A stretch of 5,495 nt of DNA, taken from positions 1 through 5,495 of the IMG/VR virus record IMGVR_UViG_2657245015_000016. One strand, given 5' to 3'. Position numbers and translations under genes: made by a program. Numbering within the stretch: position 1 is the stretch's first letter; each line of letters opens with the position of its first letter. Source of the stretch: a virus. Lineage: Duplodnaviria > Heunggongvirae > Uroviricota > Caudoviricetes. The notes beneath the pieces are model-generated. The model had not been told where the DNA came from and made no database searches. It saw only the letters and a program-made list of their open reading frames with translations. Of this stretch, positions 1-5,495 are shown in pieces.

Positions 1-1
1 C

Positions 2-106
2 GAACGTCTGGTACAGGCACTGGGCCTGGTGGATATCCGGGTGCCGGACCATCTGATAGTCGGTGGCAACCAGGTTTTCTCCTTTGCCGAACATGGTCTG
101 CTTTAA
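2..106 (+). CDS. 3' end of a RadC-like (JAB/MPN, UPF0758) protein gene; partial, 5' end lies outside the window
   Basis: Frame is open from the window edge to TAA at 104-106. The translated tail [34 protein letters not shown] resembles the conserved C-terminus of RadC-like proteins of CP4-type islands (YeeS/YfjY/YkfG family). This is recalled similarity, not a search result. Confidence 0.55.
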
Positions 107-168
107 CCCGTCACAACCACATCACACCTGTTTTCACTTTTATCTTCTGTCTTCAGAGGTATCACATC

Positions 169-390
169 ATGAGAATCATCACCCGTGGTGAAGCCATGCG
201 TATTCACCAACAGCATCCTGCATCCCGTCTTTTTCCGTTCTGTACCGGTAAGTATCGCTGGCACGGCAGTGCTGAAGCGTATACTGGTCGTGAAGTGCAG
301 GATATTCCCGGCGTTCTTGCCGTGTTTGCAGAACGCCGTAAGGACAGTTTTGGCCCGTATGTCCGGCTGATGAGTGTCACCCTGAACTGA
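169..390 (+). CDS. YeeT/YpjJ/YkfH-family small protein (DUF987), the gene that normally sits between radC-like and cbeA in CP4-type islands
   Basis: 73-aa ORF with GAGG about 10 nt upstream of the ATG at 169. The sequence MRIITRGEAMRIHQQHP...FPFCTGKYRWHGSAEAYTGREVQDIPGVLAVFAERRKDSFGPYVRLMSVTLN matches my recollection of E. coli YeeT-family proteins. Its position, radC-like then this ORF then cbeA-like, matches the CP4-44/CP4-57 gene order. Confidence 0.6.
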   Translation: MRIITRGEAMRIHQQHPASRLFPFCTGKYRWHGSAEAYTGREVQDIPGVLAVFAERRKDSFGPYVRLMSVTLN

Positions 391-552
391 TGTTCCGTCA
401 CCCGGGAAACGAGTACGACCAGATGACCTCAGACGCCGCTGTGGATGAGGCCATTCTCATCAATGCATACATCTTCACCGAAACCGGTCAGCGCGCCGGC
501 TGACCTGTCATCGTTAAACCATTCTTAACCACTTTTCAGAGAGGATTTTATC

Positions 553-1173
553 GTGTCAGACAAACTCTCCGGGATAACTCATCCCGATGACAATCACGAC
601 CGCCCCTGGTGGGGGCTTCCCTGCACAGTGAGGCCCTGTTTTGGCGCTCGTCTGGTGCAAGAGGGTAACCGCCTGCATTACCTTGCCGACCGCGCCGGTA
701 TCAGAGGCCGCTTCAGCGACGCAGATGCATACCATCTGGACCAGGCCTTTCCGCTGCTGATGAAACAACTGGAACTCATGCTCACCAGCGGTGAACTGAA
801 TCCCCGATATCAGCATACCGTCACGCTGTATGCAAAAGGGCTGACCTGCGAAGCCGACACCCTCGGCAAATGTGGCGGAAAGGGTGAGGTTTCCACCGCC
901 TGTAAGGATTGCCGTGGGCGTGGTGTCGCCATTCATCGTGAAGAGTCGGTAAAACGTGGTATGCCTGTTATCAGAGACTGCCAGCGTTGTGGTGGTCGTG
1001 GCTGTGAAAGACTACCATCAACGGAGGCATTTAATGCCATATGCAAAGTGACGAGTGCTATCACGCTTGATACGTGGAAAAAATCAGTGAAACGCTTTTA
1101 CGATACGTTGGTGGTTCGGTTTGACATTGAAGAGGCATGGGCGGAGCGGCAGTTAAAGAGGGTAACGCGATAG
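553..1173 (+). CDS. Chimeric ORF: N-terminal ~105 aa of a CbeA/YeeU/YfjZ-family antitoxin fused in frame to the C-terminal ~100 aa of a lambda-Q-family late antiterminator; probably a junction fusion or pseudogene
   Basis: GTG start at 553 with AGAGGA 8 nt upstream. Residues 1-~105 (MSDKLSGITHPDDNHDRPWWGLPCTVRPCFGARLVQEGNRLHYLADRAGIRG...LTSGELNPRYQHTVTLYAKGLTCEADTLG) carry the hallmark GARLVQEGNRLHYLADRA motif of CbeA/YeeU antitoxins. Residues ~110-206 (ACKDCRGRGVAI...IRDCQRCGGRG...LDTWKKSVKRFYDTLVVRFDIEEAWAERQLKRVTR) align with the lambda Q C-terminus (CRDCHGTGRAV...ECGRCKGVGY...QPTWSRTVKPLYDALVVQCHKEESIADNILNAVTR), including the CxxC...CxxC zinc site. A lambda-like pR' lies immediately downstream. 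Confidence 0.8.
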   Translation: MSDKLSGITHPDDNHDRPWWGLPCTVRPCFGARLVQEGNRLHYLADRAGIRGRFSDADAYHLDQAFPLLMKQLELMLTSGELNPRYQHTVTLYAKGLTCEADTLGKCGGKGEVSTACKDCRGRGVAIHREESVKRGMPVIRDCQRCGGRGCERLPSTEAFNAICKVTSAITLDTWKKSVKRFYDTLVVRFDIEEAWAERQLKRVTR

Positions 1174-1178
1174 TGTTG

Positions 1179-1218
1179 TTGATTTTTCCCGAATCTGTGG
1201 TAAATTTGCTCTAACGAT
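1179..1218 (+). promoter_or_regulatory. pR'-like late promoter with a sigma70-dependent promoter-proximal pause element (the expected Q-utilisation region)
   Basis: TTGATT (1179-1184), a 16-nt spacer, then TAAATT (1201-1206), followed by TGCTCTAACGATGGG. This closely resembles lambda pR' (GGTAAATTTGACTCAACGATGGG) and sits directly after the Q-like stop codon, as in lambdoid phages. Confidence 0.55.
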
Positions 1219-1255
1219 GGGCGTTTTATGCCTGACGTTAGAAGATTTTTTACAC

Positions 1256-1278
1256 CCCGCCGCCTGGCGGGTTTTTTT
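1256..1278 (+). terminator. tR'-like intrinsic terminator ending a short pR' transcript (6S-RNA-like)
   Basis: Stem CCCGCC (1256-1261) pairs with GGCGGG (1266-1271) around loop GCCT, followed by seven T (1272-1278). It lies about 65 nt downstream of the predicted pR' start. Confidence 0.7.
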
Positions 1279-1400
1279 ATGACTGAAATCGCGTCAGTAC
1301 AGTAAACGCGCTGGTGGCGGTGAATACCTGTCTTTCAGCTTGCTGGCTTTTTCGACAAGAGTTATTGGTGTGTCACGTTAACCGGAAAAGGGAAAAAGAC

Positions 1401-1598
1401 ATGCTAAAACAGCAGGATATGACAGAAACCGCCAGAGTAGTGTTTAATGAATTAAGCGTTACCGAACCGGCGACAGTCGGGGAGATTGCACAGAATACTT
1501 ACCTTTCACGCGAACGCTGCCAGTTAATACTGACCCAGCTGGTTATGGCGGGTCTGGCAGACTATCAGTTCGGTTGTTACAGACGCCTTCCGCAGTGA
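1401..1598 (+). CDS. Small (66 aa) winged-helix/DeoR-type HTH protein, hypothetical
   Basis: ATG at 1401 is preceded by an AAGGGAAAAAGAC purine-rich stretch. The segment TVGEIAQNTYLSRERCQLILTQLVMAGL has the pattern of a DeoR-like helix-turn-helix. The stop codon falls in the loop of a terminator hairpin. The longer track ORF starting at 1314 is not preferred because it begins in the tR'-proximal region without a ribosome-binding site. Confidence 0.4.
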   Translation: MLKQQDMTETARVVFNELSVTEPATVGEIAQNTYLSRERCQLILTQLVMAGLADYQFGCYRRLPQ

Positions 1599-1608
1599 AG
1601 GCTTTTTT
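1585..1608 (+). terminator. Intrinsic terminator after the small HTH ORF
   Basis: GCCTTC (1585-1590) pairs with GAAGGC (1597-1602) around loop CGCAGT, followed by TTTTTT (1603-1608). Confidence 0.5.
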
Positions 1609-1748
1609 ATTTGTGGTAAATGGGCGGCTGGTGGGTGTTAGGGGCACCCACCAGCCATCTGCTCATGCGTTGGGTTCACAAGCAAACCTCAGGCCCACTG
1701 CTTTGCGCAAAAGCAGAATGAGCCTATCAGAGACAGGCTTAATGATCC

Positions 1749-2798
1749 ATGCTTAATACTGTAAAAATATCCAGTTGTGAGTTAATCAACGCCGACTGCC
1801 TGGAATTTATCCGGTCGTTACCCGAAAATTCTGTTGACCTGATAGTCACGGACCCGCCGTACTTTAAAGTGAAGCCTGAGGGCTGGGATAACCAGTGGAA
1901 GGGCGACGATGATTACCTGAAGTGGCTGGACCAGTGTCTGGCGCAGTTCTGGCGGGTGCTGAAACCTGCCGGAAGTCTTTACCTGTTCTGTGGTCATCGC
2001 CTGGCATCTGATATCGAAATCATGATGCGTGAACGCTTCAGTGTGCTGAACCATATTATCTGGGCGAAGCCGTCCGGACGCTGGAACGGATGCAACAAGG
2101 AAAGCCTGCGGGCGTATTTCCCCGCCACAGAGCGCATTCTGTTCGCGGAACATTATCAGGGGCCGTATCGTCCGAAAGATGCCGGGTATGCGGCGAAGGG
2201 CAGTGCACTGAAACAGCATGTGATGGCCCCGCTGATTTCTTACTTTCGTGATGCGCGCGCGGCCCTGGGGATAACGGCAAAACAGATTGCAGATGCCACA
2301 GGAAAGAAAAACATGGTGTCGCACTGGTTTGGTACCAGTCAGTGGCAGTTACCGAACGAGGGTGATTACAACAAATTGCAGGCGTTGTTTGCGCGTGTTG
2401 CGGCAGAAAAACATCAGCGCGGGGAACTGGAAAAGCCACACCACCAGCTGGTCAGCACATACAGTGAGCTGAACCGGCAGTATATGGAACTGCTGAGTGA
2501 ATATAAAAATTTGCGGAGGTATTTCGGTGTGACGGTGCAGGTGCCGTACACCGATGTGTGGACGTATAAACCGGTGCAGTACTATCCAGGGAAACATCCG
2601 TGCGAAAAACCGGCAGAAATGTTGCAGCAGATAATCAGCGCAAGTAGTCGTCCTGGTGAGCTGGTTGCGGATTTTTTCATGGGGTCGGGTTCAACGGTAA
2701 AAGCGGCGATGGCACTGGGTCGTCGTGCGATTGGTGTTGAGCTGGAGACCGGACGTTTTGAGCAGACAGTCAGGGAAGTTCAGGATTTAATCGTTTGA
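1749..2798 (+). CDS. Orphan DNA methyltransferase, amino-methyltransferase beta class (N6-adenine or N4-cytosine); motif IV DPPY precedes motif I FxGxG
   Basis: 349-aa ORF. LIVTDPPY lies near the N-terminus (catalytic motif IV) and DFFMGSGST near the C-terminus (AdoMet-binding motif I), with a presumed target-recognition region between them. No restriction endonuclease ORF is adjacent. In-frame TGA at 1743-1745 fixes the start at ATG 1749. Confidence 0.9.
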   Translation: MLNTVKISSCELINADCLEFIRSLPENSVDLIVTDPPYFKVKPEGWDNQWKGDDDYLKWLDQCLAQFWRVLKPAGSLYLFCGHRLASDIEIMMRERFSVLNHIIWAKPSGRWNGCNKESLRAYFPATERILFAEHYQGPYRPKDAGYAAKGSALKQHVMAPLISYFRDARAALGITAKQIADATGKKNMVSHWFGTSQWQLPNEGDYNKLQALFARVAAEKHQRGELEKPHHQLVSTYSELNRQYMELLSEYKNLRRYFGVTVQVPYTDVWTYKPVQYYPGKHPCEKPAEMLQQIISASSRPGELVADFFMGSGSTVKAAMALGRRAIGVELETGRFEQTVREVQDLIV

Positions 2799-2809
2799 AA
2801 CGGATGATA

Positions 2810-2838
2810 TTGAAGAATTAATTACGCGTCGTTATTAT
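2810..2838 (+). promoter_or_regulatory. Candidate sigma70 promoter of the tRNA cluster
   Basis: TTGAAG (2810-2815), a 17-nt spacer, then TATTAT (2833-2838). The predicted start is about 8-10 nt before the first tRNA 5' end at 2848. Confidence 0.5.
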
Positions 2839-2847
2839 GCGGCTCCC

Positions 2848-2923
2848 GGCCCTTTAGCTCAGTGGTGAGAGCGAGCGACTCATAATCGCCAGGTCGCTGG
2901 TTCAAATCCAGCAAGGGCCACCA
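2848..2923 (+). tRNA. ileZ: tRNA-Ile2 (anticodon CAU, lysidine-type, reads AUA); ileX/ileZ-like
   Basis: Hand-folded cloverleaf: acceptor GGCCCTT/AAGGGCC, D-stem GCTC/GAGC, anticodon loop CTCATAA, T-arm GCTGG-TTCAAAT-CCAGC, encoded CCA at 2921-2923. It is near-identical in pattern to E. coli ileX from memory. The CAU anticodon alone cannot exclude tRNA-Met. Confidence 0.85.
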
Positions 2924-2930
2924 TCACATA

Positions 2931-3007
2931 CCGCCATTAGCTCATCGGGATAGAGCGCCAGCCTTCGAAGCTGGCTGCGCGGGGTTCAAGTCCCCGATGG
3001 CGGTCCA
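2931..3007 (+). tRNA. argN: tRNA-Arg (anticodon UCG as read from the fold)
   Basis: Acceptor CCGCCAT/ATGGCGG (7 bp), D-stem GCTC/GAGC, anticodon stem CCAGC/GCTGG with loop CTTCGAA (U33, anticodon TCG, A37), T-arm CGGGG-TTCAAGT-CCCCG, encoded CCA at 3005-3007. It starts 8 nt after the preceding tRNA. Confidence 0.85.
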
Positions 3008-3020
3008 TTATCTGCATCAT

Positions 3021-3097
3021 GCGTTGTTAGCTCAGCCGGACAGAGCAATTGCCTTCTAAGCAATCGGTCACTGGTTCGAATCCAGTACAACGCGCCA
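3021..3097 (+). tRNA. argO: tRNA-Arg (anticodon UCU, reads AGA/AGG rare codons)
   Basis: Acceptor GCGTTGT/ACAACGC, D-stem GCTC/GAGC, anticodon stem ATTGC/GCAAT with loop CTTCTAA (anticodon TCT), T-arm ACTGG-TTCGAAT-CCAGT, discriminator G, CCA at 3095-3097. Confidence 0.88.
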
Positions 3098-3111
3098 CAC
3101 TTATTTTCCCT

Positions 3112-3138
3112 GGCTCGCTTTTGCGGGCCTTTTTTTTT
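3112..3138 (+). terminator. Intrinsic terminator of the tRNA operon
   Basis: GGCTCGC (3112-3118) pairs with GCGGGCC (3123-3129), with one G-U pair, around loop TTTT, followed by nine T (3130-3138). Confidence 0.75.
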
Positions 3139-3144
3139 AAATGT

Positions 3145-3359
3145 CTCACAATTCAGACGGTTGACTGTTGTCTGGTTTGCGGGGAGTTTGTTAAAAGAAA
3201 CTGGCATGGTGAATCCCCCTGTGCGGAGGGGCAATCAGCGAGTAGGTATATGGGATAATCGCGGATTCAGGTGCTGGTACTGAATTCACCGGGAGGCACC
3301 CGGCACCATGCAATGGCACATAGCGCCACTCTCCAGCCCCTCTCCGGAGGGGCTTTTCT
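3145..3359 (+). ncRNA. Candidate structured small RNA, copy A of a tandem paralog pair occupying the stx slot
   Basis: Starts at the conserved CTCACAATTCAG block just after the tRNA terminator. Perfectly conserved blocks are shared with copy B: TTTGTTAAAA, CATGGTGAATCCCCCTG, GCGGAGGGGC, CACCGGGAGGCACCCGGCACCATG. It ends in a terminator (7-bp stem GCCCCTC/GAGGGGC at 3336-3353, then TTTTCT). There is no conserved reading frame between copies. No convincing sigma70 promoter was found, so the 5' end is uncertain. Confidence 0.35.
3336..3359 (+). terminator. Intrinsic terminator closing repeat copy A
   Basis: GCCCCTC (3336-3342), loop TCCG, GAGGGGC (3347-3353), then TTTTCT. Confidence 0.6.
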
Positions 3360-3548
3360 GTGCCGGATACATCACAGTTTCTGGAACCTTAGGTACTACA
3401 GTATCAGTCAGGGTGCTATATTTTCAGATGTGATGAAAGCCTGTCAGCAGGCAGGGCGTATCGGAAATGACCCAGTAGAGAAAACGTTGACTCAGATACC
3501 GGTGCTGAGTTACCGGGAAACCGGCATCACATGACCGCTATCCTTCCA

Positions 3549-3575
3549 GGCCCATCCGCTCCGGTGGGCCTTTTT
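3549..3575 (+). terminator. Intrinsic terminator preceding repeat copy B
   Basis: GGCCCATC (3549-3556) pairs with CGGTGGGCC (3562-3570), including one G-U pair, around a 6-nt loop, followed by TTTTT (3571-3575). Confidence 0.6.
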
Positions 3576-3612
3576 ACTGCAGAAAACAGGTTCCCCGTTA
3601 AATGCTATGTTG

Positions 3613-3846
3613 CTCACAATTCAGTAAGTTGACAGTTGCCTGTCAGACTGGGCATTTGTTAAAAAAATTTCGCATGGTGAATCCCCCTGAGCGGAGGGGC
3701 GACTGGTGACGGTATAATCTCTGATTATCAAAACGAGAATGACGCGGGTTTAGTGGCACCGGGCTGAACTCACCGGGAGGCACCCGGCACCATGTGCATG
3801 ATGATACAGATACGCGGCTTTAGCCCCTCTCCGGAGGGGTTTTCTT
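3613..3846 (+). ncRNA. Candidate structured small RNA, copy B of the tandem paralog pair
   Basis: Same conserved block order as copy A, beginning CTCACAATTCAG at 3613 and ending with terminator CCCCTC/GAGGGG (3824-3839) plus TTTTCTT. The internal 5-bp hairpin CCCCT-N6-AGGGG and the CCGGG-AGGCA-CCCGG hairpin are preserved in both copies. Confidence 0.35.
3824..3846 (+). terminator. Intrinsic terminator closing repeat copy B
   Basis: CCCCTC (3824-3829), loop TCCG, GAGGGG (3834-3839), then TTTTCTT (3840-3846). Confidence 0.6.
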
Positions 3847-3852
3847 GTGGGC

Positions 3853-3880
3853 AAAAAAAGCCCGCGCTGGGAGACGCGGG
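3853..3880 (-). terminator. Candidate minus-strand (or bidirectional) intrinsic terminator
   Basis: On the plus strand, AAAAAAA is followed by GCCCGCG-CTGGGAGA-CGCGGGC (perfect 7-bp stem). Read on the minus strand this is a hairpin followed by a T-run. Confidence 0.35.
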
Positions 3881-3949
3881 CGGCAAGGAATAAACAATAA
3901 AACGTGAAGTAATATTTCAGCTGGCGAATAATACCCCATAGTAATCACT

Positions 3950-3972
3950 CTGCGCAACTGCGCGGTCTTTTT
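3950..3972 (+). terminator. Weak candidate intrinsic terminator upstream of the esterase gene
   Basis: CTGCGC (3950-3955) pairs with GCGCGG (3960-3965) around loop AACT, followed by TCTTTTT. Confidence 0.3.
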
Positions 3973-4074
3973 CGAATTGCGGGCTGTCGTCTCTCTTCTG
4001 CCATTGTCCTGTAACTTCCGGACTTCAGCCCGCTCCTTATTTTACTCACAATATTATCCCGGCCGGGAGGATTC

Positions 4075-5322
4075 ATGGCATTTAAACACTATGACGTGGT
4101 CAGGGCGGTATCGCCGTCAGACCTTGCGAAACGACTGACACAAAAACTGAAGGAGGGCTGGCAGCCGTTTGGTAGTCCGGTGGCCATAACCCCTTATACC
4201 CTGATGCAGGCGATTGCAGCAGAAGGTGATGTGGTGGTCAGTGGTGCAACTGAGCCGGATTGGTACTACGTCATCGTACTGGCCGGGCAGTCCAATGCCA
4301 TGGCTTACGGTGAAGGGCTTCCGCTGCCGGATTCATACGATGCGCCCCATCCGCGCATTAAGCAACTGGCCCGTCGTAACACAGTGACTCCCGGTGGTGA
4401 AGTATGCGTATTTAACGACATCATTCCTGCTGACCATTGTCTGCATGATGTTCAGGATATGAGTACGATTAACCATCCCCGGGCTGACCTGAGCAAAGGG
4501 CAGTACGGCTGTGTCGGACAGGGCTTACATATTGCCAAAAAACTGCTTCCGTATATCCCTAATAACGCGGGGATCCTGCTGGTACCATGCTGTCGTGGTG
4601 GTTCGGCATTCACCCAGGGCACGGAGGGGACATTCAGCGAGTCCACGGGGGCCAGTCAGGATTCGGCTCGCTGGGGAGTGGGTAAGCCGTTATATCAGGA
4701 TCTGCTTTTCCGCACGAAGGCAGCATTGCAGAAAAACCCGAAAAACGTTTTGCTGGCGATATGCTGGATGCAGGGGGAATTCGATATGACGAATGCCAGT
4801 TACGCCCAGCAGCCAGCAGCATTTCTTGCAATGGTACAGCAGTTCCGTGCTGACCTTGCCGGGCTGGCGGCGCAGTGTCACGGTGGAAGTCCGGCATCAG
4901 TCCCCTGGATTTGTGGCGACACGACATACGCGTGGAAACAAGAACACGGTACGCAATATGAAGTGGTATATGGTGCATATAAAGGTAAAGAATCCCAGCA
5001 GATTTATTTTGTTCCCTTTATGACCGATGGTAGCGGAGTTAATACACCGACAAACAACCCGTCAGAAGATCCTGATATTGCCGGGTCTGGTTATTACGGT
5101 TCGGCATCCCGAACGAACAAAAACTGGGTATCATCAAATCGCCCGACGCATTTCAGCTCATGGGCGCGTCGTGGCATTATTCCCGATCGTATGGCAACTG
5201 CTATTCTGAACGTAGCCGGTCGCACCTTAGCCTTCATTAGTGGTAAGGCACCGGAAATCAAACCCTCGCCCGGCGGCGACACTCCATCGGGGCCGTCTGA
5301 TGGCCAATCAGAAAGGCGATGA
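4075..5322 (+). CDS. nanS-p: NanS-p-like prophage sialate O-acetylesterase (N-terminal DUF1737-like region plus SGNH/SASA esterase domain with a GQSN motif); possibly C-terminally truncated
   Basis: 415-aa ORF with a strong GGGAGGA ribosome-binding site 4 nt before ATG 4075. The N-terminus MAFKHYDVVRAVSPSDLAKRLTQKLKEGWQPFGSPVAITPY matches my recollection of the DUF1737 start of the gene found downstream of stxAB in 933W-like phages. VIVLAGQSNAMAYGEG carries the GQSN catalytic-serine motif of NanS-type 9-O-acetyl esterases. Its position downstream of the ileZ-argN-argO tRNAs matches lambdoid late-region synteny. Confidence 0.75.
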   Translation: MAFKHYDVVRAVSPSDLAKRLTQKLKEGWQPFGSPVAITPYTLMQAIAAEGDVVVSGATEPDWYYVIVLAGQSNAMAYGEGLPLPDSYDAPHPRIKQLARRNTVTPGGEVCVFNDIIPADHCLHDVQDMSTINHPRADLSKGQYGCVGQGLHIAKKLLPYIPNNAGILLVPCCRGGSAFTQGTEGTFSESTGASQDSARWGVGKPLYQDLLFRTKAALQKNPKNVLLAICWMQGEFDMTNASYAQQPAAFLAMVQQFRADLAGLAAQCHGGSPASVPWICGDTTYAWKQEHGTQYEVVYGAYKGKESQQIYFVPFMTDGSGVNTPTNNPSEDPDIAGSGYYGSASRTNKNWVSSNRPTHFSSWARRGIIPDRMATAILNVAGRTLAFISGKAPEIKPSPGGDTPSGPSDGQSERR

Positions 5323-5385
5323 CACCCACGCCCTGGGCCAGCCAATACGCGGTCATGATAAATCCTTATCAGGTATGGAAAAGCA

Positions 5386-5418
5386 AACGGCGCTTCACAT
5401 TATGAAACGCCGTTTTTT
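5386..5418. terminator. Hairpin terminator, probably bidirectional, between convergent genes
   Basis: AACGGCG (5386-5392) pairs with CGCCGTT (5408-5414), with an inner TTCA/TGAA helix. It is flanked by an A-rich stretch upstream and TTTTTT downstream (5413-5418). Confidence 0.45.
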
Positions 5419-5495
5419 ATTAACAACTCATTTCGACTTTATAGCGTTACGCCGCTTTTGAAGATCGCCAGTTCGCGGAAGTCGTTACGCTCGTT

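Follow-up and report, generated by a model that had tools for sequence, protein, structure and literature searches.

The window analysed here is a DNA stretch of 5,495 nucleotides (nt) from a tailed-phage record (IMG/VR IMGVR_UViG_2657245015_000016, positions 1 to 5,495), and it carries, at positions 2810-3138, three closely packed transfer RNA (tRNA) genes between a promoter-like motif and an intrinsic terminator. We read this element as a tRNA operon complete in itself, belonging to a lambdoid prophage and corresponding, in a form without stx, to the ileZ-argN-argO cassette of Stx2 phages, and we put the probability of this reading at roughly 0.8. Judged by tested homology, gene order and position, the element is the already known ileZ-argN-argO tRNA operon, and it holds no new biology. 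The names ileZ, argN and argO follow GenBank annotation and a reference cited in PMC3636060. What the analysis adds to the known cassette is that its CAU tRNA should be read as Ile2 and not as Met, that its promoter moves with the cassette as a unit, that its usual downstream partner is a small RNA (sRNA) of the STnc100 family and not stx, and that argN is decaying in most stx-negative prophages. An earlier note, made from the sequence of the window, had proposed such an operon, and the interval that it gave runs from the -35 hexamer to the end of the U-tract. The parts of the cassette are the following.

2810-2815, + strand: -35 hexamer TTGAAG
2833-2838, + strand: -10 hexamer TATTAT, 17 nt after the -35 hexamer and ending 9 nt 5' of tRNA1
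2839-2847, + strand: GC-rich stretch GCGGCUCCC (8/9) between the -10 hexamer and the mature 5' end of tRNA1
2848-2923, + strand: tRNA1, tRNA-Ile2 (ileZ type), anticodon CAU at 2881-2883, CCA encoded
2931-3007, + strand: tRNA2, tRNA-Arg (argN type), anticodon UCG at 2965-2967, with C1-G72, U73 and A20, CCA encoded
3021-3097, + strand: tRNA3, tRNA-Arg (argO type), anticodon UCU at 3055-3057, with G73 and A20, CCA encoded
3112-3138, + strand: intrinsic terminator, GGCUCGC-UUUU-GCGGGCC (3112-3129) followed by U9 (3130-3138)

Exactly three tRNA genes, all on the + strand, were found in the window with ARAGORN, and the Rfam covariance model RF00005 scored them at 72.5 bits (tRNA1), 58.4 bits (tRNA2) and 70.1 bits (tRNA3) (gathering score 29), the E-values lying between 5e-15 and 4e-11; on these scores the calls lie far above chance. 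The two methods agree on the three tRNAs and on the anticodons CAU, UCG and UCU that had been assigned to them before. The universal positions U8, A14, G18, G19, A21, U33, G53, U54, U55, C56, A58 and C61 are kept without a single violation in all three tRNAs, and the only stem mismatch is A27xC43 in tRNA1, tRNA2 and tRNA3 having none. The minimum-free-energy fold of tRNA2 is a perfect cloverleaf that presents UCG in the 7-nt loop CUUCGAA, which bears out the C1-G72 pair and the anticodon that the earlier note had marked for confirmation. The tRNA genes span 250 base pairs (bp), as had been stated. With the encoded CCA ends counted in the genes the two spacers measure 7 nt (2924-2930) and 13 nt (3008-3020), so that of the 8 and 13 nt given previously the second stands and the first is one too many.

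Related loci were collected from 120 viral or prophage contigs of IMG/VR that contain a 32-nt tag taken from tRNA1, and three subsets were used: 109 full-length loci, 78 loci of the window type, and 88 loci with at least 1.5 kb of downstream sequence. In near-identical E. coli loci the three genes are annotated by PGAP as tRNA-Ile, tRNA-Arg and tRNA-Arg. The window cassette lies in a late region in which the order of the Q C-terminal domain, a methylase, the tRNAs and nanS-p corresponds to the position of the Stx-type cassette, and lambdoid phages are known to carry tRNA genes downstream of Q, ahead of stx or of the lysis genes (PMC7366253, PMC3636060). At least 80% of positions 2805-3140 is covered in 2,290 of 5,426 complete E. 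coli genomes (about 42%), and as many as 13 matches, whatever their length, occur in a single E. coli genome. Downstream of the cassette, stx2A was found in 7 of the 88 loci and an STnc100-type sRNA in 69 (two copies in 10 of those), with none of these in 19. Since stx is absent from the window, as it is from 81 of the 88 sampled relatives, the window has the ordinary stx-negative layout. The proposal that this is the arrangement preceding stx in Stx phages stands as homology to the Stx2-phage cassette; it does not hold for what follows here, where sRNAs and nanS-p are found instead.

For the promoter, comparison among the loci gives strong support. All 109 full-length loci have a TTGNNN hexamer, a spacer of 16-18 nt and a TA(T/C)NAT hexamer ending 8-10 nt 5' of tRNA1, whatever tRNAs follow, and the exact arrangement of the window, a 17-nt spacer plus 9 nt to tRNA1, recurs in 93 of them. 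The TTG of the -35 hexamer is present in 109/109, its last three bases being variable (TTGCAG 55, TTGCAA 17, TTGCGG 15, TTGATT 9, TTGAAG 7, and others), and the -10 hexamer reads TATTAT in 105 loci and TATCAT in 4. Among the 78 window-type loci the conservation of the -10 hexamer is 99.4%, compared with 69-79% in the flanks. At least six unrelated sequence classes occur 5' of the -35 hexamer, and in one lineage the spacer is entirely different. Because the geometry is kept despite unrelated upstream sequence, the promoter belongs to the cassette and travels with it. The stretch between the -10 hexamer and tRNA1 is steady in length at 8-10 nt and varies in sequence; the GC-rich form that it takes in the window may resemble that of stable-RNA promoters. 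The fixed distance of 9 nt would leave a 5' leader of 0-3 nt, which is shorter than usual in the substrates of RNase P. Literature searches turned up neither a mapped start site nor tRNA-seq results for this locus.

At the other end of the cassette, the terminator has a stem of 7 bp (6 G-C and 1 G-U) with a folding free energy of -13.8 kcal/mol (z = -4.2), and none of 200 shuffled sequences folds as well; together with the U9 tract this agrees with the strong terminator that had been claimed. A hairpin of -8 kcal/mol or lower followed by at least 5 T is found after argO in 50 of the 78 window-type loci, including all 6 of those with stx2A. The terminator is real here, and it is kept less strictly than the promoter.

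Taken together, these parts suggest the following course of expression. A sigma-70 promoter, TTGAAG-17-TATTAT, would start transcription 0-3 nt 5' of tRNA1 and give a transcript of about 290 nt that passes through the three tRNAs and ends at the hairpin and U9 of the terminator. RNase P and 3' exonucleases would then free three tRNAs with gene-encoded CCA ends. In tRNA1, TilS would convert C34 to lysidine, allowing charging with Ile and decoding of AUA, while tRNA3 (UCU) would read AGA and AGG. The earlier note had credited the operon with the supply of AUA and AGA/AGG decoding; this description does not extend to the UCG tRNA, for tRNA2 would read CGA and CGG. In the lysogen the tRNAs would be expressed from the cassette's own promoter, and during induction Q-modified polymerase coming from the late promoter pR' would also transcribe the cassette, passing its terminator.

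Several observations weigh against this reading. The two hexamers match the consensus at 9 of 12 positions, and the window contains 6 such sites where 4.3 are expected by chance; TTGAAG-17-TATTAT is present at 2810-2838 just as had been proposed, and as the hexamers alone are not above chance its support as a promoter comes from conservation. The 109 loci belong to related prophages, which are not independent samples, and they were picked by a tag that lies inside tRNA1. In 28 of the 78 window-type loci the terminator is missing, and most of these have in its place a degraded homologue lacking the T-tract. In tRNA1, the A27xC43 mismatch (2874, 2890) replaces the G27.U43 wobble of K-12 ileX, so that this feature of ileX is absent. 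The discriminator U73 of tRNA2 differs from the A73 or G73 of the K-12 Arg tRNAs, and efficient charging by arginyl-tRNA synthetase (ArgRS) is thus not assured. Moreover, argN is structurally damaged in 49 of the 78 related copies, and selection for the UCG tRNA would therefore be weak in most prophages. Finally, the window lacks stx, and its genes are only modestly rich in the codons concerned, the methylase having AUA as 4 of 16 Ile codons and CGA or CGG as 5 of 21 Arg codons (small counts).

The last of these tRNA points opens an alternative in which tRNA2, intact cloverleaf or not, is a passenger that does not function or is charged poorly, and only ileZ and argO matter; we consider this unlikely. 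The identity set of E. coli ArgRS comprises A20, C35, U36 or G36, and A73 or G73. Both tRNA2 (D-loop AUCGGGAUA with A20, anticodon UCG) and tRNA3 (D-loop AGCCGGACA with A20, anticodon UCU) have A20, C35 and U36 or G36. At the discriminator, G73 of tRNA3 fits the set whereas U73 of tRNA2 does not, the five K-12 Arg tRNA genes compared (argQ, argV, argX, argU and argW) all having A73 or G73; the UCG anticodon occurs in none of the five. The passenger view draws further on the state of the relatives: tRNA2 is fully intact in 29 of the 78 window-type loci and tRNA3 in 67 (pairing of tRNA1 is kept in 75, a figure biased by the selection tag inside that gene). Damage to tRNA2 takes the form of a scrambled anticodon arm, a deletion of 13 nt, or mismatches plus A58G, and in 26 loci ARAGORN does not call the gene; its Rfam score in the window is also the lowest of the three. 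Against this, the window copy, which recurs in six other loci, is intact, with no stem mismatch, all universal positions and the main ArgRS identity elements A20, C35 and G36 in place. In addition argN is intact in 6/6 loci with stx2A, versus 15/53 loci lacking stx (Fisher p = 0.0012, with no correction for relatedness), a pattern that suggests selection in active phages.

A tRNA-Arg(UCG) on the atypical C1-G72/U73 scaffold might be required by actively replicating phages in particular, either by Watson-Crick decoding of CGA or by replacing host Arg tRNAs that have been cleaved. We offer this as a doubtful proposition, although a need for such a tRNA in replicating phages would explain the contrast between stx2 and stx-negative loci. 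Were it true, the integrity of argN would mark "live" lambdoid prophages, and the stx-negative fragment in the window would be one that keeps a cassette of the live type; if integrity does track phage activity, it could provide a cheap, as yet unproven, marker of inducible prophages.

The same scaffold is also found in other company. Cassettes with the same ileZ and promoter carry the series CAU/UUU/Thr-UGU/Gly-UCC in 13 loci and CAU/Arg-UCU/Thr/Gly in 6 loci, and the tRNA in their second slot shares the C1-G72 scaffold of argN, being 80-87% identical to it outside the anticodon arm. An intact sister on this scaffold (80% identical outside the anticodon arm) has UCU and G73; its anticodon is one base from UCG and is still that of an Arg tRNA. 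A switch of the argN scaffold to a Lys-UUU anticodon was entertained and then downgraded, as C33 and an A52xC62 mismatch make the UUU form a probable decayed copy.

To weigh the operon's promoter against transcription from further upstream, the late-region features 5' of the cassette have to be considered.

1179-1206, + strand: pR'-like late promoter, TTGATT (1179-1184), 16-nt spacer, TAAATT (1201-1206)
1256-1278, + strand: tR'-like terminator, hairpin 1256-1271 plus T7, free energy -12.6 kcal/mol
1401-1598, + strand: open reading frame (ORF) of 65 amino acids, with a weak helix-turn-helix (TrmB) match (E = 0.0026)
1585-1608, + strand: second terminator-like hairpin plus T6, after the 65-amino-acid ORF and between pR' and the tRNAs
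1749-2798, + strand: N6/N4 DNA methyltransferase gene (Pfam PF01555, E = 1.3e-43)

We take the promoter at 1179-1206 to be the counterpart of lambda pR' by its likeness to that promoter, presumably the late promoter of this prophage. With a terminator about 50 nt further on, it would yield a short RNA of the 6S/StxS kind. It is conceivable that the cassette lacks a functional promoter, that the tRNAs are made only during induction, within the Q-antiterminated late transcript from pR', and that the motif is kept for some other reason. In favour of this, the cassette is part of the late operon and has the pR'-like promoter upstream of it, and a 9/12 hexamer match is not above chance in the window. 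This nevertheless seems improbable in view of a motif geometry that persists in 109/109 loci while spacer, upstream sequence and upstream genes differ, of a -10 hexamer far more conserved than its flanks, and of K-12 ileX, which shows the same geometry, with TATAAT ending 10 nt 5' of the mature 5' end. Two intrinsic terminators (1256-1278 and 1585-1608) stand between the pR'-like promoter and the tRNAs, and polymerase from pR' that is not modified by Q should therefore not reach them; for the tRNAs to be expressed in the lysogen, the cassette would have to use its own promoter. The earlier note had called the module independent of late-gene antitermination. Such independence may reasonably be expected from the conserved promoter, with the reservation that the cassette sits inside the late operon, where Q-modified polymerase would transcribe it as well.

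As to what the operon is for, the classic explanation is codon supply. In stx2A of phage Stx2a_1447, AUA accounts for 15 of 20 Ile codons and AGA or AGG for 8 of 24 Arg codons, usage that fits this explanation. For the window the case is weaker, its genes being modestly rich as described above and nanS-p having AUA as just 2 of 19 Ile codons (small counts); the rare-codon rationale proposed earlier is thus strong for stx2A and modest here. The tRNAs may instead be mainly spare or nuclease-resistant copies that sustain protein synthesis once the host's own tRNAs have been cleaved by anticodon nucleases (colicin D, or PrrC-like or HEPN enzymes of competing prophages), an idea to which we give a slim chance. 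Lambdoid prophages do encode anticodon nucleases (PMC13043305), Thr-UGU and Gly-UCC tRNAs occupy the same slot in other lambdoid cassettes, and both the atypical C1-G72/U73 scaffold of tRNA2, with a UCG anticodon seen in none of the five K-12 Arg genes, and the modest codon bias of the window genes would suit it. The anticodon-nuclease literature lends the idea plausibility only and does not treat the cassette. The loops themselves speak against it, since that of tRNA1 is the ileX loop and that of tRNA3 the argU loop, leaving no obvious escape from a nuclease that reads the loop; so do the codon usage of stx2A and the decay of argN in most prophages. Any benefit of the operon to translation is putative.

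The identity of tRNA1 was the point on which annotations disagree. ARAGORN labels it tRNA-Met from the anticodon alone, and labelling by anticodon cannot tell Ile2 from Met. In identity, tRNA1 reaches 89.5% to K-12 ileX, 69.2% to the elongator genes metT/U and 62.8% to the initiator metV. Its acceptor stem is GGCCCUU/AAGGGCC, with C4-G69, C5-G68 and A73 present, where metT has U4-A69 and A5-U68. C4-G69 and C5-G68 are the acceptor-stem pairs by which E. coli TilS picks tRNA-Ile2 and rejects tRNA-Met (PMC11947777, PMC1635315), and identical copies of tRNA1 are annotated as tRNA-Ile by PGAP. That tRNA1 is an elongator tRNA-Met, as its CAU anticodon, the ARAGORN label and several phage annotations, including Stx phage papers that list its counterpart as tRNA-Met (PMC7946995, PMC7366253), would have it, is hardly credible against the closer identity to ileX, the two TilS pairs and the PGAP label. 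The evidence points to a tRNA of the Ile2 type, as the earlier note had held, and the annotation should read Ile2. A pattern scan of genome contigs returned mostly chromosomal Ile2 genes from many genera; the pattern was too permissive for the prophage cassette, and the scan serves here just to indicate that the anticodon and T arm together are specific to Ile2. The A27xC43 mismatch is itself kept in nearly all phage copies of tRNA1, exactly one stem mismatch being present in 75 of 78. An A.C pair can take the geometry of a G.U wobble, and it may be this shape that has been kept.

Downstream of the cassette, the slot that stx2AB occupies in Stx2 phages is taken up by STnc100 units.

3175-3365, + strand: STnc100-family sRNA gene (Rfam RF02076, 136.3 bits)
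3404-3577, + strand: degenerate third STnc100 unit (30.1 bits, below threshold), ending at a strong terminator at 3548-3571
3643-3852, + strand: STnc100-family sRNA gene (Rfam RF02076, 161 bits)

The two copies are about 71% identical to each other, and each has its own terminator. Both STnc100 and the related PasD have been described as sRNAs of prophages (bioRxiv 10.64898/2026.05.13.724894). In the 28 of 78 loci without a terminator after argO, transcription from the tRNA promoter may run into the STnc100 gene. On the minus strand, a strong terminator-like hairpin of 8 pairs, 7 of them G-C, followed by T7 lies at 3860-3881 (-), and a sub-threshold Rfam match of the OmrA-B-like type (25 bits, E = 0.075) lies at 3853-3941 (-), antisense and just after the second STnc100 copy; these signals at 3853-3941 may reflect an unannotated antisense sRNA or chance.

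The window is the whole 5,495-bp contig CDRU01000182.1 of the draft assembly GCA_000946335.1, and the lambdoid late-regulatory fragment occupies positions 871-5303 of it. The fragment runs from the Q C-terminal domain through the pR'-like promoter, the tR'-like terminator, the 65-amino-acid ORF, the second terminator, the N6/N4 DNA methylase, the three tRNAs and the STnc100-family sRNAs into nanS-p, of which the first two thirds are present. The fragment's best match in E. coli is 98.4% identical, and its relatives run on into holin and lysozyme genes. The stop codon of the methyltransferase lies 11 nt 5' of the cassette's -35 hexamer, and the same gene precedes the cassette in 43 of 98 related loci. 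The esterase ORF at 4075-5322, nanS-p-like, has 415 amino acids where its relatives have 618, and homology ends at 5303. The rest of the window, 5304-5495, is core intergenic DNA from between uxaA and ygjV and matches O157:H7 and other strains at 100% identity. The junction at 5303/5304 contains no Ns, and the same junction and right end are found in a contig of a second assembly with a neighbouring accession, CCBX01000315.1; it is either a true deletion junction or an assembly error common to both.

The left end of the window has a different origin.

1-867: CP4-type island content, with a RadC/JAB end, a DUF987 ORF at 169-390 and the start of a YeeU/CbeA-family type IV antitoxin gene at 553

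These positions are 100% identical to a CP4-type island segment present in many E. coli genomes. In the public record of CDRU01000182.1, positions 868-870 read NNN and not the AAA of the window. They mark a scaffold gap, which takes in about 519 bp of Q, and positions 1-867 are tied to the prophage piece solely by scaffolding. The ORF at 553-1173 (206 amino acids), in which a CbeA/YeeU antitoxin domain is joined to the Q C-terminal domain, was considered as a real CbeA::Q fusion with a truncated Q and rejected, as it spans the gap; it is an artefact, and its exact protein is not on record.

Among known systems the closest to the window cassette is that of phage Stx2a_1447. The genes stand in the same order with the same anticodons, tRNA1 and tRNA3 show 100% identity over their full 76 and 77 nt, and tRNA2 differs at three loop positions only; the -10 hexamer and the terminator hairpin are shared, and a DNA methylase gene again lies upstream. 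The two differ in the -35 hexamer and first spacer (TTGCAG and 9 nt there, TTGAAG and 7 nt in the window) and above all in what comes next, stx2AB starting about 90 nt after argO in Stx2a_1447 whereas the window has the terminator, then STnc100-family sRNAs and nanS-p. Phages of the 933W and Sakai Sp5 type are further examples of Stx2 phages with the cassette. On the chromosome of K-12, ileX and ileY (tRNA-Ile2, CAU modified to lysidine) share with tRNA1 the loop CUCAUAA, C4-G69, C5-G68 and A73 besides the 89.5% identity, and ileX resembles it also in a -10 hexamer placed 9-10 nt 5' of the mature 5' end. They differ in that tRNA1 has U6-A67 for C6-G67 of ileX and A27xC43 for its G27.U43, and in that ileX is a single-gene chromosomal unit, whereas ileZ is the first gene of a three-tRNA prophage operon. 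K-12 argU, the tRNA-Arg (UCU) that decodes the rare AGA and AGG, is like tRNA3 in its loop CUUCUAA, A20 and G73, but with an identity of just 72.7% tRNA3 is no recent copy of argU. The wider family is represented by phages 21, SfI, Sf6 and ST64T, which likewise have tRNA genes between Q and the lysis genes, for which a codon-supply role has been proposed, but which carry other tRNAs, Asn-GUU and Thr-UGU (PMC3636060).

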